Positions 12,153 to 44,682 are shown, counted from the stretch's first letter. The stretch is 64,000 nucleotides of DNA from Candidatus Thorarchaeota archaeon (GCA_048884785.1 JBHLQM010000006.1:16038-80037); one strand, 5' to 3'. Numbers and translations: made by a program. The notes: generated from the letters alone by a model not told the origin.

Positions 12153-13304
12153 CTAATATGCCCGATATTTCACTCCAGAAGCTGTATTGAGAATGACAAC
12201 TTCCTCATCACCATCTATTTGTCCTGACTCAACAAGGTTTCCTAGACCTGCAAGACCTACAGCAGTTTCAGGACAGACATCCAAGCCTTCCAGTTTACCA
12301 GCTAGACTCATTATGTGCGGAATCTCGTGTTCTGCCACGGCAACAGCACCTCCTCCTGACTGCTTTAATGCACCCATAATAAGTCTGTCCGCAAATGGTT
12401 TTGGCACTCTTAATCCATATGCCTGAGTCGAACTATTTTTCCAAGGCTCAATTGAATCTGCCCCGGTTTCATATGCTCTTACGACCGGAGCGCAGCCCTC
12501 ACTCTGCGCTGCGTAAAGTCTCGGACGTTCGCTTCCAATCAGACCAATACCCTCGAGTTCATCTAATCCCTTCCAAATACCGATAATTGCAGTGCCACCC
12601 CCAGTAGGGCAGACAATTACATCAGGTATCGTCCATCCGAGTTGCTCCACAATTTCAAAAGCCAAGGTTTTCTTGCCCTCCACCCTGTATGGTTCCTTGG
12701 TTGTGGAGAGATCCATCCAATTCCCATTCTGTTTTTTCATAGTCGAGGCGCTATCAGAAAGAGTACCGGATGTGGATACAGTTAATGCTCCATACAAGTG
12801 ACAATCATCAAAGAACATCTTTGGGGTATCTTCTGGCATGAATATGTTCACTGGTACACCTGCAGCAGCTGAATAGGCACTTGCTGATACAGCAGCGTTT
12901 CCAGCTGACGGAAGTGCAAAGGCAGTGGCTCCAAGTTCCAGATTCTTAGAAATTGCACAGCAGATGCCTCTATCCTTGAAGCTTAATGTTGGATTCCTTG
13001 ATTCATCCTTTATGCGAAGCATTTTCAGTCCAATATGAGTGCCGAAGCGCCTAGTTAATACCAAGGGGCTCCATCCTTCACCTAGGCTCGTGACAAAAGA
13101 TGGTGAGTTTACGGGTAGCAGCATCGAGTATCTCCACATAGAATTAACTTCGGTTGGGAATTCATTACATTCAATTGCATCAATAACCGGACCAAGATTG
13201 TATTTTGCCAGTAGAGGCGAGCCACAAATACAGAATGTGGCAAGTCGCTCCGCAGAATACACCTTAAGACACTGAGGACACTCAAGATGTGAGATAGCCG
13301 ACAT
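12153..13304 (-). CDS. thrC: Threonine synthase family PLP enzyme
   Basis: N-terminal CxxC..CxC, LGEGWSPL, NPTLSFKDRG, SAGNA, EGKKT and PTGGG; start at MSAISH with GAGGT RBS. Confidence 0.85.
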   Translation of the reverse strand: MSAISHLECPQCLKVYSAERLATFCICGSPLLAKYNLGPVIDAIECNEFPTEVNSMWRYSMLLPVNSPSFVTSLGEGWSPLVLTRRFGTHIGLKMLRIKDESRNPTLSFKDRGICCAISKNLELGATAFALPSAGNAAVSASAYSAAAGVPVNIFMPEDTPKMFFDDCHLYGALTVSTSGTLSDSASTMKKQNGNWMDLSTTKEPYRVEGKKTLAFEIVEQLGWTIPDVIVCPTGGGTAIIGIWKGLDELEGIGLIGSERPRLYAAQSEGCAPVVRAYETGADSIEPWKNSSTQAYGLRVPKPFADRLIMGALKQSGGGAVAVAEHEIPHIMSLAGKLEGLDVCPETAVGLAGLGNLVESGQIDGDEEVVILNTASGVKYRAY

Positions 13305-13384
13305 CAATTTTAGAACCTCTTTTACGTGAACACGTACCATTATATTTGTGTACATGTTATCGATGAAGCAGAGGATAGCCACCA

Positions 13385-14584
13385 ATGGTACAGCTAAAGA
13401 GAATGGTTCTCCCATTCACTGCATTAGTAGGATTGGAGCGACTTAAACTAGCTCTAATCTTAAACGGAGTTAATCCTCGTATTGGTGGTCTACTAGTTTC
13501 AGGTCCAAAAGGCACTGGGAAGACGACACTTGTTAGAGCTTTTGCAGAGCTGCTACCTGAAATTGAAGTAGTCGAAGGCTGCCGATTTGGATGTAATCCT
13601 CGAAATCTGGAAACCCTTTGTGAGGAATGCAACAAGCGCATCGAATCAGGAGAGAAGCTCCCCATCCTATCTGGAAAAATGAGAGTTGTCAATCTTCCAC
13701 TTTCAACAACAGAGGATCGATTAATTGGTTCGCTGGATCTTGAGAGAGTGCTGAAAGATGGAATTCAAGCGCTAAGGCCTGGCATCCTTGCAGAAGCTCA
13801 CCAGAACATTCTCTATGTTGATGAAGTGAATTTGCTGCCAGATCATCTTGTAGACGATCTTCTTGATGCTGCAGCAACAAAGGTCAATGTAATTGAACGT
13901 GAAGGCATCTCTATTTCACATTCATCAGATTTTGTGTTGATGGGTTCTATGAATCCCGAGGAAGGTGAATTGCGTCCCCAGCTACTCGATAGATTTCCTC
14001 TTCATGTATCAGTTGGGTCCAATTACTCGATAGAGGACAGGATGGAGCTCGTTCGGCGGAATCTGGATTTTGAGAACTCTCCGTATGAGTTCATGGAAAA
14101 ATGGGAAAAAGAACAAAGTGATTTGAGGCAGCAAATCATTTCGGCGAGAATGCTACTTCCAGAAGTTGAATTATCAGAAACTCAGCTTCGAGCAATAGCT
14201 ATGGCCACAGATGCTCTTGAAGTGGATGGCGTTCGCCCTGACATAATAATCAGCAAGGCATCGGTCACACTTGCAGCATTCTTTGGTAGAAAAAGTGTAG
14301 AACTTGAAGATATGCAGTTGGCTGCCCAATTGACTATGAGCCACAGAACGCGTCGTGGAGGACTTTTGGAACCTCCCTCACAGAATGAAATCAATGAATC
14401 CATTTCAAAGGCACATGATGTTGCACAAAAACAAGACCGAAGAAAATCTCCCACTGAAGTAGGCGAAGAATCAGGAGAGAAGACTTCAGGAGAACGAAGA
14501 AGTGGCGGTAAATTCGGACGGCAAGGATCCTTTGCAGATATGAGTATGGGTGAGGAAGGCAAAAAAAAACGCCGACAAGAATAA
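13385..14584 (+). CDS. Magnesium/cobalt chelatase subunit I-like AAA+ ATPase (frame-0 product)
   Basis: PFTALVG, GPKGTGKTT, TEDRLIGSLD, LYVDEVNLL and MNPEEGELRPQLLDRF motifs. Confidence 0.9.
   Translation: MVQLKRMVLPFTALVGLERLKLALILNGVNPRIGGLLVSGPKGTGKTTLVRAFAELLPEIEVVEGCRFGCNPRNLETLCEECNKRIESGEKLPILSGKMRVVNLPLSTTEDRLIGSLDLERVLKDGIQALRPGILAEAHQNILYVDEVNLLPDHLVDDLLDAAATKVNVIEREGISISHSSDFVLMGSMNPEEGELRPQLLDRFPLHVSVGSNYSIEDRMELVRRNLDFENSPYEFMEKWEKEQSDLRQQIISARMLLPEVELSETQLRAIAMATDALEVDGVRPDIIISKASVTLAAFFGRKSVELEDMQLAAQLTMSHRTRRGGLLEPPSQNEINESISKAHDVAQKQDRRKSPTEVGEESGEKTSGERRSGGKFGRQGSFADMSMGEEGKKKRRQE
14561..14570 (+). other. Putative -1 frameshift / transcriptional slippage site (A9C)
   Basis: AAAAAAAAAC just before the frame-0 stop; the -1 frame is open from here into the vWA ORF; hairpin CCACGA...TCGTGG at 14590-14612. 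Confidence 0.7.
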
Positions 14585-33217: not shown

Positions 33218-35824
33218 ATGTCAAAGGAAAAGAAAAATGTGCAAACCGCCAGCACCGTTGAAGCCATCAGGATGGCATCAGCTTCAATCTTGGGAACTAC
33301 TACCAGTCAGGGGTATCCATTAGGGAGCGCAACTGGTTCAGGTTCAAAGATGGAAGAGAATTCGGAAGCTGTAGCAATGAATATCGCCCCTCTGATTTTC
33401 TCTCTCCGCGATGAAGTTGCTGCGGCAGAAGGACTGAATCTCTTATCACTTGAGTGGGATCTAGAACGAACTCCTGGACCAGAGATATTACCTGAGCATC
33501 TCATTATAACAGGCGGAAAATCTGGTGATGTTTCTTCTCATATATGCGCATTAGGTTGGGAGAAAGGTGTTATTGATCCATTCAAAATGGACGAATATAT
33601 GGGTAGAATCGCCAAGAAAATATCTGATGTGGAAAAGGCTGTTATTGGAAATGGAATCGAGTATGAAAGTGATGGTCTTGCCATTCTTCGAAAATTCTCC
33701 AATCGATTCAATAGTGTTATTTTTGTTGAGATGCTTGAAAGACAGTTCCAAGAGACATGGGAATCTCAGAGAATAAAACCTGAAAGCGTTGATATTGAAT
33801 CAATCATAGAATTCAGGTTTCGAGATGATTTCTCTTCAAATCCCCCTGGTCCAAAAATACAGCAACGGACATTGATTGATTTCAGATTGCCTGAAGGATC
33901 GGAAGAAGAACGTCTTCTTCACTTTCGACATAGAATTCTATCACCCCGCGGACTTGCAGCCATTTCATCCCGTATCCCTGACATGGGAAGAGCCATTCTC
34001 ACTGAATTGAATGAATACGCTTACAGCATTGAGGAGGTAGAAATTGCACAATCAACTATTGAAGCTCTTGTGGAATTCTTGGGGAAAGACCAGATTCAGC
34101 CAGATGAGCTTAGTGTACTCGCAAGCTCTTCCAAACAATTCGCACAGAAAATGTCTGAAGCCGCAAATCTATTTGGCATACTGGTTGATGAACACTCAAC
34201 ATCTGGGCTACGATTGACTCTGGATGGACATCACGAAAGGATTTTGGCGGCCATTGAACAGAAATCGAATGCTCTTGATGAACTTCAAATTAAATACAGT
34301 AAGACACTTTTACACCATCTCAGTGCATCTATAGAACGTGGTTTTCCAACATCTGATGAAATTAGGGCTTGGGAGCTTAAATCAACATTCTCATACTTTG
34401 TGGCAGTAATAAAACGAGTTCTAAGCTATCTTACTCACGAGCTACAGCAGTTCCTGCTTTTCAGTTCTGTGAAGCGGGTTCTTCGAGAAACACTTGAAGA
34501 GTTCAGGAATGATTCGGATATGGAGCAAATGGATGCAACAGAAAAACTGCTATTCCACAAGTTCTATGCTGAATTATACTCGCTTCTCAATGCTATAATC
34601 GACCGGAAATCGTCAATTGATTCAGACTCTTCAAACATCAATCACATTGTTGAATCTATTACCAAAGAGGTGAGTGAAGAATTCAAACGAATTGATGTTT
34701 GGGATATAATTGGCTTTTCTGACCTTGCCGAGATTGCGCGTGCTGAGATCGAATCTTATGAAAACAATATCGAGAGCAAGGTCACGCGTGATTCGCTAAC
34801 CAATTTATTGCAGCAATATGAGGAGTTTGTTAGCCAAACGCTTCCCGATGTTGGTGAGAAATTCATTTCTAGAGATTGGTTCAATAGTGCGATTGATGCA
34901 GCAACAAAGAATGGGAGTACAGTTTTAGATTTTCTCAGGAGTTCGATTTCCGAAGAGAGTGAAAAGACAGCTGATTGGAGGGAAGAAGCAATGACTTGGG
35001 CTGGGCTTCTAAACGAACGAGTTTCTGATTCAATGCCCGTATCAGAACAGCTCTTCACTTTCCTCAAGCTTGCATATGAGCGGCTAGGCGAAGGTGCCAC
35101 TCCAACTGCAGTTTTGGAGCGAATCCGTATCTCTGATCAAAAACTCCATGATCAATATGAAAATAATGTCAATACATGGAAGGCACTCTGCAGTGAGATT
35201 GACAGGGAGAACGAACCAATCAGGGAGAATAACAAACGACGAGAGATTCTACTCACAGAGGCCATCACGAATTGTGAGCACGAAACAAGAGAGTATGAAA
35301 TCTCGCTTCAAAATTTCCAGAAAAAGATGGAAGAATATAACTCACAACCAATTCCCAACGAAATGCCTAGACCAACTGAACCATCAATACCAGAGTCACT
35401 GGAATCCCGCAAAGCAAGAATTGACAGTCAATATCCCCTGCAAGCTGAAAGAGAGTACCCCCCTGAACCAACTCAATCGGAAGAGATGCAAACCTATTCC
35501 GTCCTTAGAGAGCTATTAGATAGAAAGCTGGAAAAAATGGAGAGAAGCCAAGAACGAATGGAACAAGTGTTTACCCTGAAACTCCGTGCACTAAAATCAG
35601 AAGGAGCAAAAATCACAGAGGGTATCGCAATAGGACTTAGTACTGAGTTCCTCGAGTTTCTAATGAATGCGGCAGTTCGAAAACTAGGTCGACTCTTGCC
35701 TCGCGCAAAGAGAGTGTTTTTGCGAAGTCCAACAGAAAGTGGAATCGTCTATCTAGTTTCATTTGAATTCAAAGGCGATATATTGGTAGTATCTATTGGC
35801 AACAATTTGCTGAGGAGGGTCTAG
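33218..35824 (+). CDS. Large hypothetical helical protein (868 aa), possible N-terminal longin-like domain
   Basis: Long ORF; alpha/beta ends, helical/coiled-coil core and Pro-rich segments. Confidence 0.7.
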   Translation: MSKEKKNVQTASTVEAIRMASASILGTTTSQGYPLGSATGSGSKMEENSEAVAMNIAPLIFSLRDEVAAAEGLNLLSLEWDLERTPGPEILPEHLIITGGKSGDVSSHICALGWEKGVIDPFKMDEYMGRIAKKISDVEKAVIGNGIEYESDGLAILRKFSNRFNSVIFVEMLERQFQETWESQRIKPESVDIESIIEFRFRDDFSSNPPGPKIQQRTLIDFRLPEGSEEERLLHFRHRILSPRGLAAISSRIPDMGRAILTELNEYAYSIEEVEIAQSTIEALVEFLGKDQIQPDELSVLASSSKQFAQKMSEAANLFGILVDEHSTSGLRLTLDGHHERILAAIEQKSNALDELQIKYSKTLLHHLSASIERGFPTSDEIRAWELKSTFSYFVAVIKRVLSYLTHELQQFLLFSSVKRVLRETLEEFRNDSDMEQMDATEKLLFHKFYAELYSLLNAIIDRKSSIDSDSSNINHIVESITKEVSEEFKRIDVWDIIGFSDLAEIARAEIESYENNIESKVTRDSLTNLLQQYEEFVSQTLPDVGEKFISRDWFNSAIDAATKNGSTVLDFLRSSISEESEKTADWREEAMTWAGLLNERVSDSMPVSEQLFTFLKLAYERLGEGATPTAVLERIRISDQKLHDQYENNVNTWKALCSEIDRENEPIRENNKRREILLTEAITNCEHETREYEISLQNFQKKMEEYNSQPIPNEMPRPTEPSIPESLESRKARIDSQYPLQAEREYPPEPTQSEEMQTYSVLRELLDRKLEKMERSQERMEQVFTLKLRALKSEGAKITEGIAIGLSTEFLEFLMNAAVRKLGRLLPRAKRVFLRSPTESGIVYLVSFEFKGDILVVSIGNNLLRRV

Positions 35825-35826
35825 CA

Positions 35827-38283
35827 ATGTCGAGCTCATGGATACTAAAAACAAGGCAGATGAGTGAAGCGGGAAAGGCAACGATTTTGAGCCAAGCTTT
35901 GGCCAATCATTTGCGAAGCCCTCGTGATAGAAAACTAGTAACAGGGGAATTGAAAGAAAAACATTCCCTTGAAGATTTGCTATCCCTATTTGGTGCCTTT
36001 TACTTATACAGCTATCAAGGAATTCGGCTACTTCACTTAGATGCTTCACAAGACCTCTCTATTGAGGAGCGAGAGGCACTCACGAAAAAGGAGCATGGGC
36101 TTCTTGAGAATGAAGTTCGAATGATGCTTGGCAATAAGCAGAGAGAGGAAATTCATGTCTCAAGAATTTCAAGCGAATTCACTCTTGAAGCATGTTCAAC
36201 GCTAGAAGGGAGCAAACCAAAGGATTCCGAAACGATGCAAGTTGTTATCGATCTCATCAGGAAATATGCAAACATGATTCCAAGCGAGTACTCCCATAAT
36301 AGCGAAATCGACTTCATTACGGAGATTACTGGCTGGGCTGCAAAATGGAGGGATGAAATATATGTCAAGGCATCCGGTTTGAAGGAATCTTCATTATCAC
36401 TTCGAGACGAGCTATTAAAGCCGCATGACGAGGAAGTAGCAGAAATTGCGGTTCTAAAACGAGGTATTGAGGCCGTAAAAGGGAGTATTTCCCCACCATC
36501 CAAACGTGTACTTTCGGAGGGTCTTTCCTCAATTCATTGGAATGGAATTGCTGAGGCTGTGATTGACCGCTTGTTCTCAAACAAGACCACTCTAAATGCA
36601 CTCAAACTTGCACATGGCATTCGATTGTCTGCTCTGAATGCACTCGTACATCAATTTGATTCTCCAACGACTCTTGAGGATTATGAAACTCTCATTGGTA
36701 GAGTTCTAGTTCAAAGCATTTCAGATTCGGGTGCAGATTCCAAAACTATACTTGAAGCGATATCGCATTTTGTAGGAATTCCTCTAGATGATGTTTCAGC
36801 TTTTCTTCGGGTAAATGGGATACGAGATACTTCTCGGATTGCAGAGGGCCTGGTTGCGAGTGCATCGGAATCAAGAGCTGAAGAAATAGGTGAAGCAGCA
36901 CCAGATTCATCATACACACCTGAGCAAATAGAGGAGATGACGCGTTCTCTTCGGAAACTGGAGAAATTAGAAGATACTTTGGAGAAGCCTGTGAAAGGAT
37001 TACTTAGGTCGAAAGGACTCCGAGCGTCTGAGCTTGATTCAATCCATCTTGATTTTCTGACTAAAGATCGATCAACATTACTTGGGTTTGAGATTCGCGT
37101 ATTGGAGGAGTTGGAGAGAAAGACTCGTGTTCCAGATCCTGAAGAAGTAAAACAGTTGATTCAGCTAAGGACTGAATTCCAAAGTGGCAAACTCACAGGC
37201 GCTGAAATTAGTTCGTCAATGGATATGACTAGACAGCTACAAGAAGGAAAATCATTCTCAGGTCTCCGGATGGATTTGATTTGGTATTTTACCATAGGAA
37301 TTCTGAAGAATCTAGTTCGCGTGATCGAAACCTATAATCGTTCCAAGTATGATATTCAAAGGTCCAAGGCTTTGCTAAAGAGTATCTACGAGGACTCTGA
37401 CACTCAGCTTCAATTTCTAAGAGAGGAGATTCTGATTGACCTCCTGTCTATGCGGCTGGCTGAAATTAAGATAGTTCATCCTGAGTTGAATGCTTCAAAC
37501 ATATGTGCATGGTATCATGCTCGTCTCACAAATACCGATATTGAATCAGCAAAGGTTTCTCTTGATACTTCTCCGTCCCCTGTATTCTGGGGCGTGAAGG
37601 CTGAATCATTGAATTTGAGAGAACTCTCATTTGATAATTATTCAATAGCATTTGACCTTATGCAGAGGTTCCTTGTGGCGCAAAGGTCGGAACGCGACAT
37701 CAGAATTGAACAGGCGGCAGAGGCGAAAACCACTCGCGAAAAGCAAATAGAGGATAAAAAGAGCAGTGTGGATGTTTTCAGTTTTATATACACCAAATCC
37801 CACACAGTCTTTCGGGCAATTGGCCGAGTTGGAGCAAAGGGTCTAGAGTGGAATGCAAATGACGATGCTAAATGTGCTAATTTGCTATCTTTCTTCCTGA
37901 AGAACAAACGTGGAATCCCTATTTGCGGAGTTTGTGGTGAAAGCTCCGCAGATGGAGTGTGCAGTGCTCATGGCAAAGGCAACATGACCAATTCGACTGA
38001 TGTTGATAACCTCTCTTGGTTTGTTAAGAGGGCAATTAGTGATATTAAAGAAGGATTAATTGGAGCCAAATCTGAACCTTTAGCTTGGAGTGAAGCGAGG
38101 TCGATTGTGCAGCGGGAGCTTGGTATCCTCAGGCGCAGAGGAAAACTAACAAGTAGGACAAATGTCAACGCTATGCTACCTGGCGAAATCAACTATATTG
38201 TAGGTCCAGCGCTAGCAGCAGTAATTGGGAAATACTTCAATGAATCGCTCGAATATGCCGCGCGTCGAGCTGGAATTGCCTGA
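35827..38283 (+). CDS. Large hypothetical helical protein (818 aa) with CxxC-x8-CxxH zinc finger
   Basis: Starts 2 nt after the previous stop; CGVCGESSADGVCSAHG. Confidence 0.7.
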   Translation: MSSSWILKTRQMSEAGKATILSQALANHLRSPRDRKLVTGELKEKHSLEDLLSLFGAFYLYSYQGIRLLHLDASQDLSIEEREALTKKEHGLLENEVRMMLGNKQREEIHVSRISSEFTLEACSTLEGSKPKDSETMQVVIDLIRKYANMIPSEYSHNSEIDFITEITGWAAKWRDEIYVKASGLKESSLSLRDELLKPHDEEVAEIAVLKRGIEAVKGSISPPSKRVLSEGLSSIHWNGIAEAVIDRLFSNKTTLNALKLAHGIRLSALNALVHQFDSPTTLEDYETLIGRVLVQSISDSGADSKTILEAISHFVGIPLDDVSAFLRVNGIRDTSRIAEGLVASASESRAEEIGEAAPDSSYTPEQIEEMTRSLRKLEKLEDTLEKPVKGLLRSKGLRASELDSIHLDFLTKDRSTLLGFEIRVLEELERKTRVPDPEEVKQLIQLRTEFQSGKLTGAEISSSMDMTRQLQEGKSFSGLRMDLIWYFTIGILKNLVRVIETYNRSKYDIQRSKALLKSIYEDSDTQLQFLREEILIDLLSMRLAEIKIVHPELNASNICAWYHARLTNTDIESAKVSLDTSPSPVFWGVKAESLNLRELSFDNYSIAFDLMQRFLVAQRSERDIRIEQAAEAKTTREKQIEDKKSSVDVFSFIYTKSHTVFRAIGRVGAKGLEWNANDDAKCANLLSFFLKNKRGIPICGVCGESSADGVCSAHGKGNMTNSTDVDNLSWFVKRAISDIKEGLIGAKSEPLAWSEARSIVQRELGILRRRGKLTSRTNVNAMLPGEINYIVGPALAAVIGKYFNESLEYAARRAGIA

Positions 38284-38711: not shown

Positions 38712-40118
38712 GTGGCGAGTTTCATGACAAAGCGGTTTGTTCCAAAAGGTGTAATGCCGGCGTTAGTGACTCCCTTCACTCGGGATGGAGATTTGATTGA
38801 AGAGAGTTACAAAGAGATTATCGACTATACTATAGAAAATGGCGCCACCGGGATTGTACCAGCAGGTACGACTGGTGAGTTTGTTTACATGCGAACTGAA
38901 GAGAGGAAGAAGCTTCTTCGGTTGGCGGTGGAGTATTCTGATGGAAGAGTACCGGTGGTTGCTGGTACTGGTCAGAATAGCACTCGAGCCACTGTTGCCC
39001 TTACAAAATATGCAGCAGATATTGGCTGCAAAGCCGCCCTTGTGATATCTCCATTCTACCTTCGACCCAGTGACAAGGGATACTATGAACACTACGAAAC
39101 TGTCGCACGGAAATCAGATCTTCCTATCATTCTTTACAACATTCCTCAATGCACACTCGGAGTTCTTCAGTCATCAGTAGTGGAGGATTTGGCTGAAATA
39201 GACAACATTGTAGGAATTAAGGATAGTAGCGGGAATATTGGCCATACGCTTGAGCTAATTCAGAAACTCAAAAGCAAAATGCCGGTTTTAATAGGACACG
39301 ATGAGTGTTTCTTGTCAGCTGTAGCAGCTGGAGCGGAAGCTGCCATCCTGGCCTCAGGCAATATTATGCCACATATTTGGCTTGAGATAATGAAGAAGGT
39401 GAGAAAAGGAAAATTTGAGGAGGCGGCAAAAATGCAGATGTCCGTACAAACACTCTCACGAATAATAACTAGAAATGGAGGAGCTCCGCCAGTTAAAGCT
39501 GCCCTGAAAATGATGGGTTTTAACGCCGGAAAATCCAGAATGCCCTTAGACTCCGGCGGAACGCTAACAGTTGAATTGAAGGAAGAGATTAGACTAGAGT
39601 TGGAGAAACTTGGGCTGATCAAAGAATTGGTTCATCCGGTCATTCAAAAAGAGATTGATATGCAGAAGGTATTGAAAGAGCAAGGCTATTCGATTGATGG
39701 AGGAGTTAAACACTCCTCTGCGTGTGTAGATGGTATCTCAGTAGGAGTTGCCGTTGGTTCCAAAAAAGGATCTCTAGGGACTGCATTTGTTGGCCTTCTT
39801 ACAAGTGCGAAGATAGGACAAGAGGCACTAACAATCATTCTTGAACCTAACCTTGCTGTAAAACCAAGTAGTATAATGCTACCACTTCAACAAATTCAGT
39901 CGATGCGTCAGGCATCGTTATTCTATGGACCTGTTCAGTCCGGAGCTGCCAAGGCATTTGCAGGCTTCATAGGAGAAGGGAGAATTCCAGAGGAATCACT
40001 GAAGGATGAGGTGGCGGTGCTTGCCATTGATGTGGATTTGAATTCTAGAAATCGACGTACAGTTACACGCGAAACTGAGGCAGCAGTATCCGCAGCACTT
40101 GCACAGATTTGGAGGTGA
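38712..40118 (+). CDS. DapA-family (class I) aldolase fused to a degenerate formaldehyde-activating enzyme (Fae) domain
   Basis: PALVTPF, GTTGE, YNIP and Schiff-base IKDSSG; C-terminal GSKKGSLGTAF..LL...LEPNLAVKP....P...Q..LFYGPVQSGAAKA = Fae core. Confidence 0.85.
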   Translation: MASFMTKRFVPKGVMPALVTPFTRDGDLIEESYKEIIDYTIENGATGIVPAGTTGEFVYMRTEERKKLLRLAVEYSDGRVPVVAGTGQNSTRATVALTKYAADIGCKAALVISPFYLRPSDKGYYEHYETVARKSDLPIILYNIPQCTLGVLQSSVVEDLAEIDNIVGIKDSSGNIGHTLELIQKLKSKMPVLIGHDECFLSAVAAGAEAAILASGNIMPHIWLEIMKKVRKGKFEEAAKMQMSVQTLSRIITRNGGAPPVKAALKMMGFNAGKSRMPLDSGGTLTVELKEEIRLELEKLGLIKELVHPVIQKEIDMQKVLKEQGYSIDGGVKHSSACVDGISVGVAVGSKKGSLGTAFVGLLTSAKIGQEALTIILEPNLAVKPSSIMLPLQQIQSMRQASLFYGPVQSGAAKAFAGFIGEGRIPEESLKDEVAVLAIDVDLNSRNRRTVTRETEAAVSAALAQIWR

Positions 40119-40124
40119 AAAGAT

Positions 40125-41600
40125 ATGGTTTCAGCATTCAAATTCAAAGGTGTATATCCTGCCCTAGTAACTCCATTTAATGAAGAAGGCGTTGACGAGA
40201 AGAAGTATCGCGGATTGATAGATTATGTGATTAAATCAGGTGCAACCGGTGTTGTCCCTTGTGGAACAACAGGTGAATTCACCAGCATGCGTTTTGAAGA
40301 GAAAGTCGAAGCAATTAGAATCGCATGTGAAGCTGCTAAAGGACGCGTTCCAGTGCTTGCTGGAACTGGCGCAGCATACACCGGAGATGTCATTAATCTA
40401 ACTAGAAAAGCCGCTGAGTTTGGAGCTGTCGCCGCCCTTGTTGTGACACCTTATTTCCAAAAGCCATCAAACAAGGAGATTTTCGAGCATTTTGCGAAGG
40501 TTGCCAATGCCAGTGATATACCGATTTTCGCATATAATATCCCGCAAGTTACAGGTGTTCCTTTGCATTGGACTGTGGTAGATGGATTATCAGAGATTGA
40601 GGGACTGATCGGACTTAAGGATTCAAGTGGCGATTTAATCAATCTGACGACAATCCTGGTTCGCAGACCCGAAACATTCCAAGTCGTTATAGGCCATGAT
40701 GAAGTGGCTTTGCCAGCACTTGCTTCTGGATGTGATGGGGCAATCCTGGCAAGTGCAAATATCTTTCCTGATAGGTATATCAAGATGCAAGCAGCCCTTG
40801 CGAGTGGAGATCTAAAGCAAGCATTGATAATCCAGAGAAGTATCCAAAAAACTGTACGTACTATTGTTAACAGGGGCGGAGGAATGGCTGTTAAGGCTGC
40901 CCTTAACATGATGGGTATACCAGTGGGAAAGGCGCGGCCTCCCCTTCTTGAAGGAGATTCTCTCTCTTACGAGGATATTGATGAGCTTCGGACATGTCTT
41001 GAAGATTTGCAGCTAATTCCGAGAGGCTCAGTCACATTCAAGATGGGTGAACAATCTATTGTTGCTAGATCATATCCAAAAGCTGTTGGTTTGGTACCTG
41101 ATGTCGTAGAAGACTTGACATTATTGCACGGAGAATCTCTTTGTGGAGCCGGACAAGAAGTAGCTCATATAGACCTGGTTATGGGACTTAGGGAAGGACC
41201 TTTGAAGGTTTCACTGGAGAATGCAGGTATAATCCGTCAGGGCTACCATACTGCAGATGAGGTAAAGGACCTTAAACCCCAAACTATCTTTTCACCTACT
41301 GTTACAATTACGCATGATGGGCACAAAAAGATGGTCTATGAAGTAGCTCAAAAAGCAGTCATTGATGCTGTAACACGGAGTATTACGGACGGAGTGATTC
41401 CTGACGAGCTGATTGATGACATAATTATTGCTGTAAATGTTTTTGTGCATCCTGATGCTGTAAACGCTCGTAGAGTGCACATCAACAATTTTAGAGCAGT
41501 ACGCCATGCGTTACGCCGAGCGATTGAGGGAAGACAATCCATTCAAGAGATTAAGTCATGCAAGGAATCTGCAAGGCATCCATTTGCATATAGTCCCTAG
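40125..41600 (+). CDS. DapA-family aldolase fused to a Fae domain
   Basis: GTTGE, YNIP and LKDSSG; C-terminal GESLCGAGQEVAHIDLVMG...AQKAV..AV...DGVIP...VFVHPDA...NFRA...AL.RA...HPF = Fae signature. Confidence 0.88.
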   Translation: MVSAFKFKGVYPALVTPFNEEGVDEKKYRGLIDYVIKSGATGVVPCGTTGEFTSMRFEEKVEAIRIACEAAKGRVPVLAGTGAAYTGDVINLTRKAAEFGAVAALVVTPYFQKPSNKEIFEHFAKVANASDIPIFAYNIPQVTGVPLHWTVVDGLSEIEGLIGLKDSSGDLINLTTILVRRPETFQVVIGHDEVALPALASGCDGAILASANIFPDRYIKMQAALASGDLKQALIIQRSIQKTVRTIVNRGGGMAVKAALNMMGIPVGKARPPLLEGDSLSYEDIDELRTCLEDLQLIPRGSVTFKMGEQSIVARSYPKAVGLVPDVVEDLTLLHGESLCGAGQEVAHIDLVMGLREGPLKVSLENAGIIRQGYHTADEVKDLKPQTIFSPTVTITHDGHKKMVYEVAQKAVIDAVTRSITDGVIPDELIDDIIIAVNVFVHPDAVNARRVHINNFRAVRHALRRAIEGRQSIQEIKSCKESARHPFAYSP

Positions 41601-43545: not shown

Positions 43546-44682
43546 ATGCCAGATGAACATAGATTGCTAAAATTCGCCCAGAATCTCATATCAACGAATT
43601 CAGAAAGCCCTCCTGGAAGAGAGAGAGATGTTGCTAATATTATTCGCGATCACTTGGAGTCTCATGGTTTATCCTGCATATCCATCGGTCCCACTGAACG
43701 GCCAAATCTAATTTTCTCAACAATTGATGGTGAGAAAGGTCCGCTACTTCTGCATGGTCATATGGACACTGTGCCAGTAGGTGATATTGAGAAATGGAAC
43801 CATGATCCATTCTCGGCAGAAATCCATAATGGGCTCTTATATGGTCGAGGGGCATGTGATATGAAGGGACCAGTCGCAGCATTGGCTGAAACAATGATTA
43901 TGTATTCCGAATCTGGCAATAAGACACCTCTAATGTTGTTGTGCACCTCAGATGAGGAGAGCGGCTGTTCAGGGGCTGAACACGTTGCAGCAAGTGGATA
44001 TCTCAAGGGAGTACGGTATGGAGTTTGTGCTGAACCAACAAATCTTGGTGTGCTGGTTGGAGAGAAGGGGATGCTGTGGACCAAGATCCGTGCTCGTGGA
44101 AAATCTGCTCATGGCTCAAGACCTAGTGAAGGCCTTAATGCAATCAATCTCTGTGCAAAAGCAATCGACGTGCTATCAGAAATGGACTATCCCTACGAAC
44201 CTGATGCGTTAATGGGAGAGATGACATTCAATGTCGGGTTGATCGAAGGTGGAATTAAGATTAATGTGGTCCCTGATTATTGCGAGGCGCAGCTGGATAT
44301 GAGAACTGTAAAAGGTCAAGATATTCAGCAAGTTTTGGAGGAAATGAAAAACCGATTGCACAACCATGGGCTTGCAGAAAAAGTGGAGATTGAATATATC
44401 CACGGAAAGGAGGCTGTTCTGACTGATAGGGATGAAGAAATCGTGAGAGTTGCATTAGATGTAATCGAAACGGTAATTGGTAGGCGCCCTATTCCGAGTG
44501 CGGCTACCTATGGTACCGATTGCTCAGTTCTTCAGCCAAAGATTGGGATAATAAACGTGATTTGTGGACCTGGGTCTATTGAACAAGCTCATCAGCCAAA
44601 CGAGTTTATTCGAATTGACCAGTTATTGCAATCTGTCGATGTCTATCTTTCTATAGCTGAACATTTCAAATCTGAGCCATAA
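43546..44682 (+). CDS. M20 family metallopeptidase (ArgE/DapE-like)
   Basis: GHMDTVP, GRGACDMKG, DEE, AEPT, GKSAHGS and AHQPNE motifs. Confidence 0.92.
   Translation: MPDEHRLLKFAQNLISTNSESPPGRERDVANIIRDHLESHGLSCISIGPTERPNLIFSTIDGEKGPLLLHGHMDTVPVGDIEKWNHDPFSAEIHNGLLYGRGACDMKGPVAALAETMIMYSESGNKTPLMLLCTSDEESGCSGAEHVAASGYLKGVRYGVCAEPTNLGVLVGEKGMLWTKIRARGKSAHGSRPSEGLNAINLCAKAIDVLSEMDYPYEPDALMGEMTFNVGLIEGGIKINVVPDYCEAQLDMRTVKGQDIQQVLEEMKNRLHNHGLAEKVEIEYIHGKEAVLTDRDEEIVRVALDVIETVIGRRPIPSAATYGTDCSVLQPKIGIINVICGPGSIEQAHQPNEFIRIDQLLQSVDVYLSIAEHFKSEP

Follow-up and report, generated by a model that had tools for sequence, protein, structure and literature searches.

What reaction is carried out by a protein that joins a DapA-type aldolase to a formaldehyde-activating enzyme (Fae) domain, and what is the role of two such proteins encoded side by side? 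The question is raised by two adjacent genes, here named A and B, found in a window of 64 kb (the whole stretch of DNA analysed, contig C6:16038-80037) from the genome of a Candidatus Thorarchaeota archaeon (GCA_048884785.1). The genome spans 3.6 Mb and is 91% complete, with a contamination estimate of 5.4%; the positions of genes and domains given below are window coordinates, counted from its first letter. The answer proposed here, to which we assign a probability of about one half, is that A and B form a heteromer that makes 4-hydroxy-2-oxobutanoate (HOB) from pyruvate and methylene-tetrahydromethanopterin (methylene-H4MPT), feeding homoserine and threonine synthesis. The broader statement, that A and B act as a pyruvate aldolase and exchange a C1 unit with H4MPT, is considered probable. 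Judging from the sequences, the pair is a real, conserved two-gene enzyme; the theme of an aldolase fused to Fae is known, and the pathway would be new if confirmed.

Two adjacent aldolase-Fae fusions

Gene A (38712..40118, + strand) encodes 468 amino acids when counted from the GTG at 38712, and gene B (40125..41600, + strand) encodes 491; both were defined by open reading frame (ORF), translation and matches to the Pfam families for Fae and for 4-hydroxy-tetrahydrodipicolinate synthase (DHDPS). The orthologues of A from 14 Thorarchaeota genera have the N-terminus MxKxFVPKGV and begin where an ATG is found at 38724 (MTKRFVPKGV), which is likely the true start of gene A, rather than the GTG. 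Both genes are on the same strand and in the same frame, with one TGA between them, and are in different frames in other genera. A Shine-Dalgarno-like site for gene B, GGAGGTG (40111..40117, + strand), overlaps the TGA stop of gene A (40116-40118) and lies 9 nt ahead of the gene B ATG at 40125; this overlap and the two ORFs, described in the initial annotation, were read directly in the sequence. A and B share 37% identity along their whole length. For gene B, more than 100 orthologue clusters were found, with 65-81% identity, all of them containing DHDPS and Fae domains. In the databases the fusions are named 4-hydroxy-tetrahydrodipicolinate synthase, and fragments of them formaldehyde-activating enzyme.

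The N-terminal part of each protein is a class I aldolase, a TIM barrel of the DapA family, located on the + strand at 38745..39551 in A (aa 12-280; PF00701, 262 bits) and at 40140..40961 in B (aa 6-279; PF00701, 240.7 bits). Mapping to E. coli DapA identified, also on the + strand, the motifs GTTGE (38865-38879 in A, 40263-40277 in B), KDSSG with the Schiff-base lysine (39219-39233 and Lys170 in A, 40617-40631 and Lys165 in B) and GHDE (39294-39305 in A, 40692-40703 in B). The position of Arg138 is occupied by cysteine in the YNIPQCT motif of A (39135-39155) and by valine in the YNIPQVT motif of B (40533-40553). The initial reading, in which both proteins keep GTTGE, the tyrosine of YNIP and the catalytic lysine and lack the DHDPS arginine, was exact in all these motifs.

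The equivalents of the pyruvate-side residues Thr44/45, Tyr133 and Lys161 are kept in A and B throughout 14 Thorarchaeota genera. In the acceptor pocket (E. coli DapA numbering), Arg138 is replaced by Cys or Val, Asp187 by His (GHDE for GDD) and Asn248 by Gly, and a Phe follows GTTGE; the replacements at 138, 187 and 248 were present in the 14 genera and in every other fused protein examined. Since the pyruvate-side catalytic residues are kept, both barrels appear to be functional pyruvate aldolases in which the acceptor pocket has been remodelled. The predicted structure of B (AlphaFold2, AF2) had a predicted local distance difference test score (pLDDT) of 87.9, and its best fold matches in the PDB were DHDPS structures, with target template modelling (TM) scores of 0.91-0.93. 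The Tyr107 equivalent is kept in A (PFY, 39051-39059, + strand) and is Phe in B (PYF, 40449-40457, + strand); this asymmetry holds in Thorarchaeota genomes and fails in non-Asgard pairs, and so it was not used as evidence for a heteromer.

The annotated identity would make A and B genuine DHDPS enzymes (DapA), in which the Fae-like domain is accessory or regulatory. Both proteins score above the cut-off of the NCBIfam dapA equivalog TIGR00674 (230.5 and 231.9 bits vs 206), which favours that identity over the one proposed here, DHDPS enzymes are the nearest solved structures, and an ArgE/DapE-family deacylase is conserved downstream of the pair. The likeness to DHDPS comprises the TIM-barrel fold, 30-36% identity, and the retention of GTTGE, Tyr133 and the Schiff-base Lys161, but A and B differ from it by Cys/Val138, His187, Gly248, the C-terminal Fae domain and the apparent lack of a DapB partner in the genome. 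Asgard genomes with dapB have, besides any fusion, a separate unfused dapA directly beside dapB, which keeps YNVP[GS]RT, SGDD and TNP; Arg138 and Asp187 are thus kept in these genes, whereas they are replaced in every fused protein. DapB (TIGR00036) was not found in any of five Thorarchaeota genomes, three of which are 97-98% complete, and was not found in 7 of 12 other fusion carriers, two closed genomes among the seven. Asd was not found in this genome and is present in 2 of the 5 Thorarchaeota genomes. The replacement of Arg138 and GDD, together with the failure to find DapB and Asd in this genome, argues, in agreement with the initial annotation, that the proteins are not DHDPS, and leaves the DapA identity hardly credible.

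Thorarchaeota genomes that do have Asd (L044, at G075:C1:286356-290381, and L045, in G128) encode it in what seems to be an operon, together with aspartate kinase and a COG1900-like fragment, which we take, from a reading of the sequence rather than from a hidden Markov model (HMM), to belong to aspartate-semialdehyde-dependent homocysteine synthesis. This suggests that aspartate semialdehyde serves methionine rather than homoserine in these genomes. A third DapA-family gene of the genome analysed here, on contig C23, is KdgD-like.

A proposed Fae site divided between two proteins

The C-terminal domains of both proteins exceed the Pfam gathering score of 27 for Fae (PF08714), so that the architecture noted at the outset, a DapA-family barrel followed by Fae, was recovered in A and B alike. 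However, the two domains are not equivalent. The domain of B (41130..41585, + strand, aa 336-487) scored 104.9 bits and covers positions 2-158 of the profile, and that of A (39741..40103, + strand, aa 344-464) is partial, with 80.7 bits over positions 15-135 only. With TIGR03126, which has a cut-off of 118.05, both fell below (74.7 for A, 116.6 for B). A keeps the Fae motifs EPNL (39843-39854) and YGPVQ (39924-39938, the GPxQ motif), and lacks AHxD and the C-terminal RHPF tail; alignment to the Fae structure 1Y5Y and column analysis place ISVGVAV (39735-39755) where Fae has EVAHIDL. B keeps AHID (41163-41174, with His348 and Asp350), VFVHP (41439-41453) and RHPF (41574-41585), and in the alignment to 1Y5Y it has YEVAQ (41337-41351) in place of GPAQ and has also lost EPNL. 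All of these motifs are on the + strand.

A total of 44 columns are conserved in both canonical Fae-Hps proteins and single DapA::Fae fusions. Nine of them are kept in both A and B, nine in A only, 22 in B only and four in neither, so that the two proteins jointly cover 40/44. The A-only columns are found in the middle of the domain (EPNL..KP, GPxQ), and the B-only columns at the N-terminal (GE.L..E.AH.D) and C-terminal (VF.HP, A.HPF) ends. The same division was found in three A-then-B pairs from outside the Asgard archaea. The initial view of the locus as a pair of whole fusions thus holds for the fusion architecture, but each Fae domain retains the half of a single site that the other has lost, pointing to an obligate heteromer.

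Comparison with the Fae of Methylobacterium extorquens, a homopentamer (PDB 1Y5Y/1Y60), gave the same picture. B aligns to its residues 8-167 (E 3.8e-20), with AHID and the C-terminal HPF conserved, and A to residues 22-118 (E 1.6e-9), with APNL..KP and FGPAQ conserved; unlike the M. extorquens enzyme, neither domain alone keeps all conserved Fae columns. In that enzyme the H4MPT site is reportedly formed between adjacent subunits, one contributing His22 and Asp24 and the other Phe84 and Gln88 (of FGPAQ), an arrangement that would fit the division between A and B. A model of the complex of the A and B Fae domains scored 0.76, against 0.41 for the best control. Of solved complexes 58 of 80 reach the mark applied, as do 2 of 110 mismatched pairs; since a Fae homopentamer has been solved, the result may owe to resemblance to that structure and add nothing new. 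Between runs at least 83% of the contacts agreed, the partner pLDDT was at least 85, and the modelled interface includes B residues 350 and 352, of the AHID strand, and A residues 351-388 (376-388 among them), which contain EPNL. From the residue pattern and this model, A and B would be subunits of an obligate heteromer with a composite Fae site. If true, the split site would clearly illustrate how subfunctionalisation can give rise to an obligate heteromer.

The pairing of A and B is widely conserved. Within a sample of 301 Asgard genomes, Fae matches were found in 71/76 genomes of the Thorarchaeota family, nearly always exactly two and weak (E 1e-28 to 1e-35), and the A-then-B order was seen in 55/60 Thorarchaeota genomes, covering all 16 genera. 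The non-Asgard A-then-B pairs, in which the genes overlap by 4 bp, come from archaeon GCA_003560875.1, a Korarchaeota/Thermoproteota-type contig and an Anaerolineae-type contig; A-B pairs are present in Bathyarchaeia too, and the bacterial pair is Chloroflexota-like. Many other Asgard families have, in addition to a canonical Fae in frames of ~400-460 aa (Fae-Hps type), a second full-scoring Fae in a frame of ~500 aa, which is a DapA::Fae fusion in single copy whose Fae domain is complete (189-205 bits with the Pfam Fae model; 194-212 with TIGR03126, vs the cut-off of 118). One such fusion, from Atabeyarchaeia, is at L023:3305-4795.

A maximum-likelihood (ML) tree recovered the fused proteins as monophyletic with respect to plain DapA (support 99). 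All A types formed one clade (94), all B types another (99), and the single-copy forms grouped with the B side (86), a topology that points to a single old duplication followed by subfunctionalisation. In one genome of family f21 (G053:C135:11106-14004), two adjacent full-length fusions each match almost the entire single-type query, one of them with a TAA inside the match; these may have arisen by a separate tandem duplication.

In other Asgard lineages Fae-Hps and the single DapA-Fae fusion occur side by side, so that where two formaldehyde-type aldolases exist, each has its own Fae. The genome analysed here has no Fae domain besides those of A and B, and no match to Hps (TIGR03128) above the cut-off was found in Thorarchaeota genomes, nor any canonical Fae-Hps in the Thorarchaeota family searched. 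A Fae serving a separate Hps was for this reason discarded in these genomes, and the fused aldolase alone is left as candidate source or sink of formaldehyde. This genomic context, the fusion to Fae in a lineage without Hps, suggests that the aldolase handles formaldehyde.

A proposed route from the C1 pool to homoserine and threonine

Genes for H4MPT metabolism, expected from the initial annotation, are present in this genome, with Mch matching at 422 bits and Mtd at 361 bits, and Mch was found in 11/12 carrier genomes, which belong to several phyla. Nearly all DapA-family enzymes act on pyruvate, and the only characterised activity of Fae, to our knowledge, is the condensation of formaldehyde with H4MPT. 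The gap that such an enzyme could fill is in homoserine synthesis. Homoserine dehydrogenase (Hom, PF00742) was not found in any of five high-quality Thorarchaeota genomes and was present in only 3/76 genomes of the family, while the same search recovered it in 14/14 control genomes. Nevertheless, this genome has two threonine synthase equivalogs, with 323 and 461 bits vs a cut-off of 303, one of them in the window (12153-13415, - strand; NF006050, 461.5 bits), and ThrC is present in 74/76 Thorarchaeota genomes. Threonine synthase acts on O-phosphohomoserine, and with Hom not found the Thorarchaeota genomes are left without an evident source of homoserine. The second threonine synthase copy of this genome is on contig C9; in several Thorarchaeota genera the contig that bears A and B also has a ThrC copy, at a distance of ~19-31 kb, which reflects large-scale synteny and not an operon.

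Genomes that carry the fusion tend to lack Hom, and the reverse. Of the 301 Asgard genomes, 23 have both, 128 the fusion only, 92 Hom only and 58 neither (odds ratio 0.11); the corresponding numbers in 121 Bathyarchaeia genomes are 5, 28, 69 and 19 (odds ratio 0.05). Besides the Thorarchaeota (family f1; fusion in 71/76, Hom in 3/76), the families rich in the fusion are f12 (15/19), f27 (9/11), f21 (2/3) and f13 (Atabeyarchaeia, 3/3, two of the three sampled genomes being closed), with Hom in 0/19, 0/11, 0/3 and 0/3 genomes, respectively. The opposite was seen in four families where Fae is present without the fusion: f3 (fusion 0/4, Hom 4/4), f4 (0/2 and 2/2), f7 (0/5 and 5/5) and f19 (0/6 and 5/6). 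The large family f9 is mixed, with 16 genomes having both, 28 the fusion only, 19 Hom only and five neither, with entire genera sorting to one side or the other. Nor was Hom found in the six non-Asgard archaeal carriers of the fusion, including a Theionarchaea and a Methanofastidiosia carrier. An exclusion that tends to hold in two phyla and within one family is the signature expected of interchangeable solutions to one essential task.

Taken with the conserved pairing and the H4MPT context, the Hom gap makes the simplest fitting chemistry the conversion of pyruvate and methylene-H4MPT to HOB, and of HOB to homoserine. The A and B proteins would form one heteromeric enzyme, each subunit contributing a pyruvate-binding class I aldolase barrel with its Schiff-base lysine. 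Their C-terminal Fae-like domains would pack together, rebuilding one H4MPT/formaldehyde site per A-B interface from the AHID strand and C-terminal tail of B and the EPNL..KP and GPxQ segments of A. At this site methylene-H4MPT would be opened to H4MPT plus enzyme-held formaldehyde, or closed again, and the aldolase, to which the formaldehyde could be channelled, would add the pyruvate enamine to it, giving HOB. An aminotransferase would then convert HOB to homoserine, followed by phosphorylation and formation of threonine by the encoded threonine synthases. Such a module would replace the aspartate-semialdehyde/homoserine-dehydrogenase route and draw carbon from the H4MPT branch of the Wood-Ljungdahl pathway.

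Several observations weigh against this proposal. The fusion and Hom occur together in a minority of genomes (the 23 Asgard and five Bathyarchaeia genomes counted above), and Hom was found in Baldrarchaeum and in both bacterial carriers, so that the exclusion is a tendency and not a rule. Related genomes are not independent, and the Fisher p-values of the co-occurrence analysis therefore make the exclusion look stronger than it is. In family f20, ThrC occurs in 3/7 genomes in the absence of both Hom and the fusion. The canonical homoserine kinase (ThrB, GHMP-type) was found in only 19/301 Asgard genomes, with or without Hom; matches to TIGR02535 were below its cut-off and are probably ApgM. 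The conserved neighbours of the Thorarchaeota pair include no aminotransferase, kinase, dehydratase or other pathway gene. Finally, the assignment of particular Fae residues to one or the other subunit draws on the predicted complex and on the site reported for 1Y5Y/1Y60.

The same chemistry could also run in the catabolic direction, as the initial annotation had it when it linked amino acids to the C1 pool through a pyruvate aldolase and Fae. The aldolase would cleave HOB or another formaldehyde-yielding 4-hydroxy-2-oxo acid, derived for example from C4 sugar acids or homoserine, and Fae would trap the formaldehyde as methylene-H4MPT, to be oxidised or used in making acetyl-CoA. Architecture and H4MPT genes are compatible with both directions, the trapping of formaldehyde on a pterin carrier is thermodynamically favourable, and the analogy with Fae-Hps, in which Fae captures the formaldehyde freed by the fused aldolase, speaks for catabolism and against HOB synthesis. 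However, a catabolic role lacks an evident source of HOB or homoserine, since Hom was not found in Thorarchaeota and neither a dehydratase nor a transaminase is linked to the pair, and it leaves unexplained the exclusion between fusion and Hom in two phyla where ThrC is retained. The proposed link between C1 pool and amino acids thus stands as far as the architecture is concerned, but with no evident homoserine to catabolise and ThrC present, gene content favours the anabolic direction, and the catabolic one appears quite unlikely.

A different substrate pair is another candidate, in which another 2-oxo acid, acceptor or pterin would be used in a cofactor, amino-acid or sugar-acid pathway, and the anti-correlation with Hom would be a by-product of lineage or lifestyle. 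The pocket changes (Cys/Val138, His187, Gly248 and the Phe after GTTGE) are family-specific and do not on their own point to formaldehyde, so the acceptor may differ from that of the HOB reaction; the single fusions have as neighbours a 430-aa protein without family match and a 315-aa U32-like protein, and kinship could inflate the co-occurrence statistics. On the other hand, the pyruvate-binding residues are kept in a family devoted almost entirely to pyruvate, and the single fusions score above the cut-off of a Fae model whose only characterised activity joins formaldehyde to H4MPT. One specific candidate of this kind, a replacement for PanB acting on 2-oxoisovalerate and methylene-H4MPT, was rejected, since this genome has PanB (381 bits) and ketopantoate synthesis is already covered. 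A substrate pair other than pyruvate and formaldehyde is regarded as doubtful.

Extending the HOB route beyond this locus is more tentative. It would mean that Asgard archaea, Bathyarchaeia and other H4MPT archaea possess a natural C1-assimilating route to homoserine and threonine via DapA-Fae, which replaces an otherwise universal pathway and in Thorarchaeota takes the form of an obligate A/B heteromer. If true, this would be an undescribed natural route to these amino acids, in which one of four carbons comes straight from the Wood-Ljungdahl methyl branch. Among Asgard archaea, Bathyarchaeia and other archaea, hundreds of database entries that bear the name 4-hydroxy-tetrahydrodipicolinate synthase would have to be corrected, and metabolic reconstructions of the closest archaeal relatives of eukaryotes would change.

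Neighbouring genes and comparison with known systems

The surroundings of the pair are syntenic throughout the Thorarchaeota family and include a metallo-beta-lactamase (MBL)-fold protein, two proteins of >800 aa, CutA1, an LPG-synthase TM protein and an ArgE/DapE-type deacylase. This neighbourhood, conserved family-wide, proved uninformative, and operon partners were discarded as a clue to the pathway. The two large proteins are encoded upstream of the pair by tightly coupled ORFs of 868 and 818 aa (33218-38283, + strand), which match no Pfam family and are conserved in 12 of the 14 Thorarchaeota loci examined, two genera (L040, L041) being without them. The deacylase, an M20 member of the ArgE/DapE family, lies ~2 kb downstream of the pair (43546-44682, + strand; TIGR01910, 253.7 bits), also in 12/14 loci.

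Different genes accompany the single-copy fusions. In three loci of one Loki-type family (L025:1752-3056, + strand; L024 and L028), a protein of ~430 aa is encoded directly upstream of DapA-Fae. Its homologues in the genome analysed here (C62:13449-14711 and C112:3-1226) are not near the pair, and the Loki-type and Thorarchaeota proteins are 66% identical; no Pfam, NCBIfam, PDB or Atlas match was found for this protein, whose predicted fold had a pLDDT of 41. Contigs C62 and C112 have the same gene order (the 430-aa protein, a seryl-tRNA-synthetase-like gene and a glycosyltransferase) with ~75% protein identity, an arrangement that may represent a second strain in the bin or real paralogy. In other Asgard families a protein of ~315 aa is found beside the single-copy fusion (L026:2304-3248, + strand; L027:5816-6760, - strand; L022:1424-2359, - strand). 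It is U32-like by Atlas features alone, as it falls in clusters with 17-23% Peptidase_U32 members; it had no Pfam or PDB match, and no tblastn homologue was found in this genome.

Full-text searches of the literature found no description of a DapA-Fae fusion, in line with the initial annotation, and the closest known system is Fae-Hps (NF009833), a bifunctional 5,6,7,8-tetrahydromethanopterin hydro-lyase / 3-hexulose-6-phosphate synthase present in methanogens and many archaea. Both systems combine homologous Fae domains with an aldolase that handles formaldehyde, or is proposed to, in hosts that use H4MPT; the parallel in logic drawn initially is borne out to the extent that analogy allows. 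Unlike Fae-Hps, the partner is a class I pyruvate aldolase of the DapA family and not Hps, with its orotidine monophosphate (OMP) decarboxylase fold, the domain order is reversed (aldolase N-terminal, Fae C-terminal), and this genome has two copies of the fusion gene, with complementary Fae halves.

The overall logic proposed for A and B is also that of PanB, which moves a hydroxymethyl group from a methylene-pterin to C3 of a 2-oxo acid. PanB differs from A and B in its unrelated fold and mechanism, its single domain and its 2-oxo acid. RhmA, another aldolase relevant to the proposed reaction, is a class II, metal-dependent enzyme that belongs to a family unrelated to DapA. Promiscuous E. coli RhmA and similar enzymes act as the HOB aldolase of the synthetic homoserine cycle, the same reaction as proposed here, and the sequence that leads from pyruvate and formaldehyde through HOB and homoserine to threonine is functional in engineered E. 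coli, for which HOB is described as non-native (PMC8879981). Unlike RhmA, which was recruited by design, uses free formaldehyde and has no carrier domain, A and B would be a dedicated, natural and H4MPT-linked HOB-forming enzyme with a built-in carrier domain, which, if true, would be immediately useful for synthetic methylotrophy of this kind (PMC8879981).

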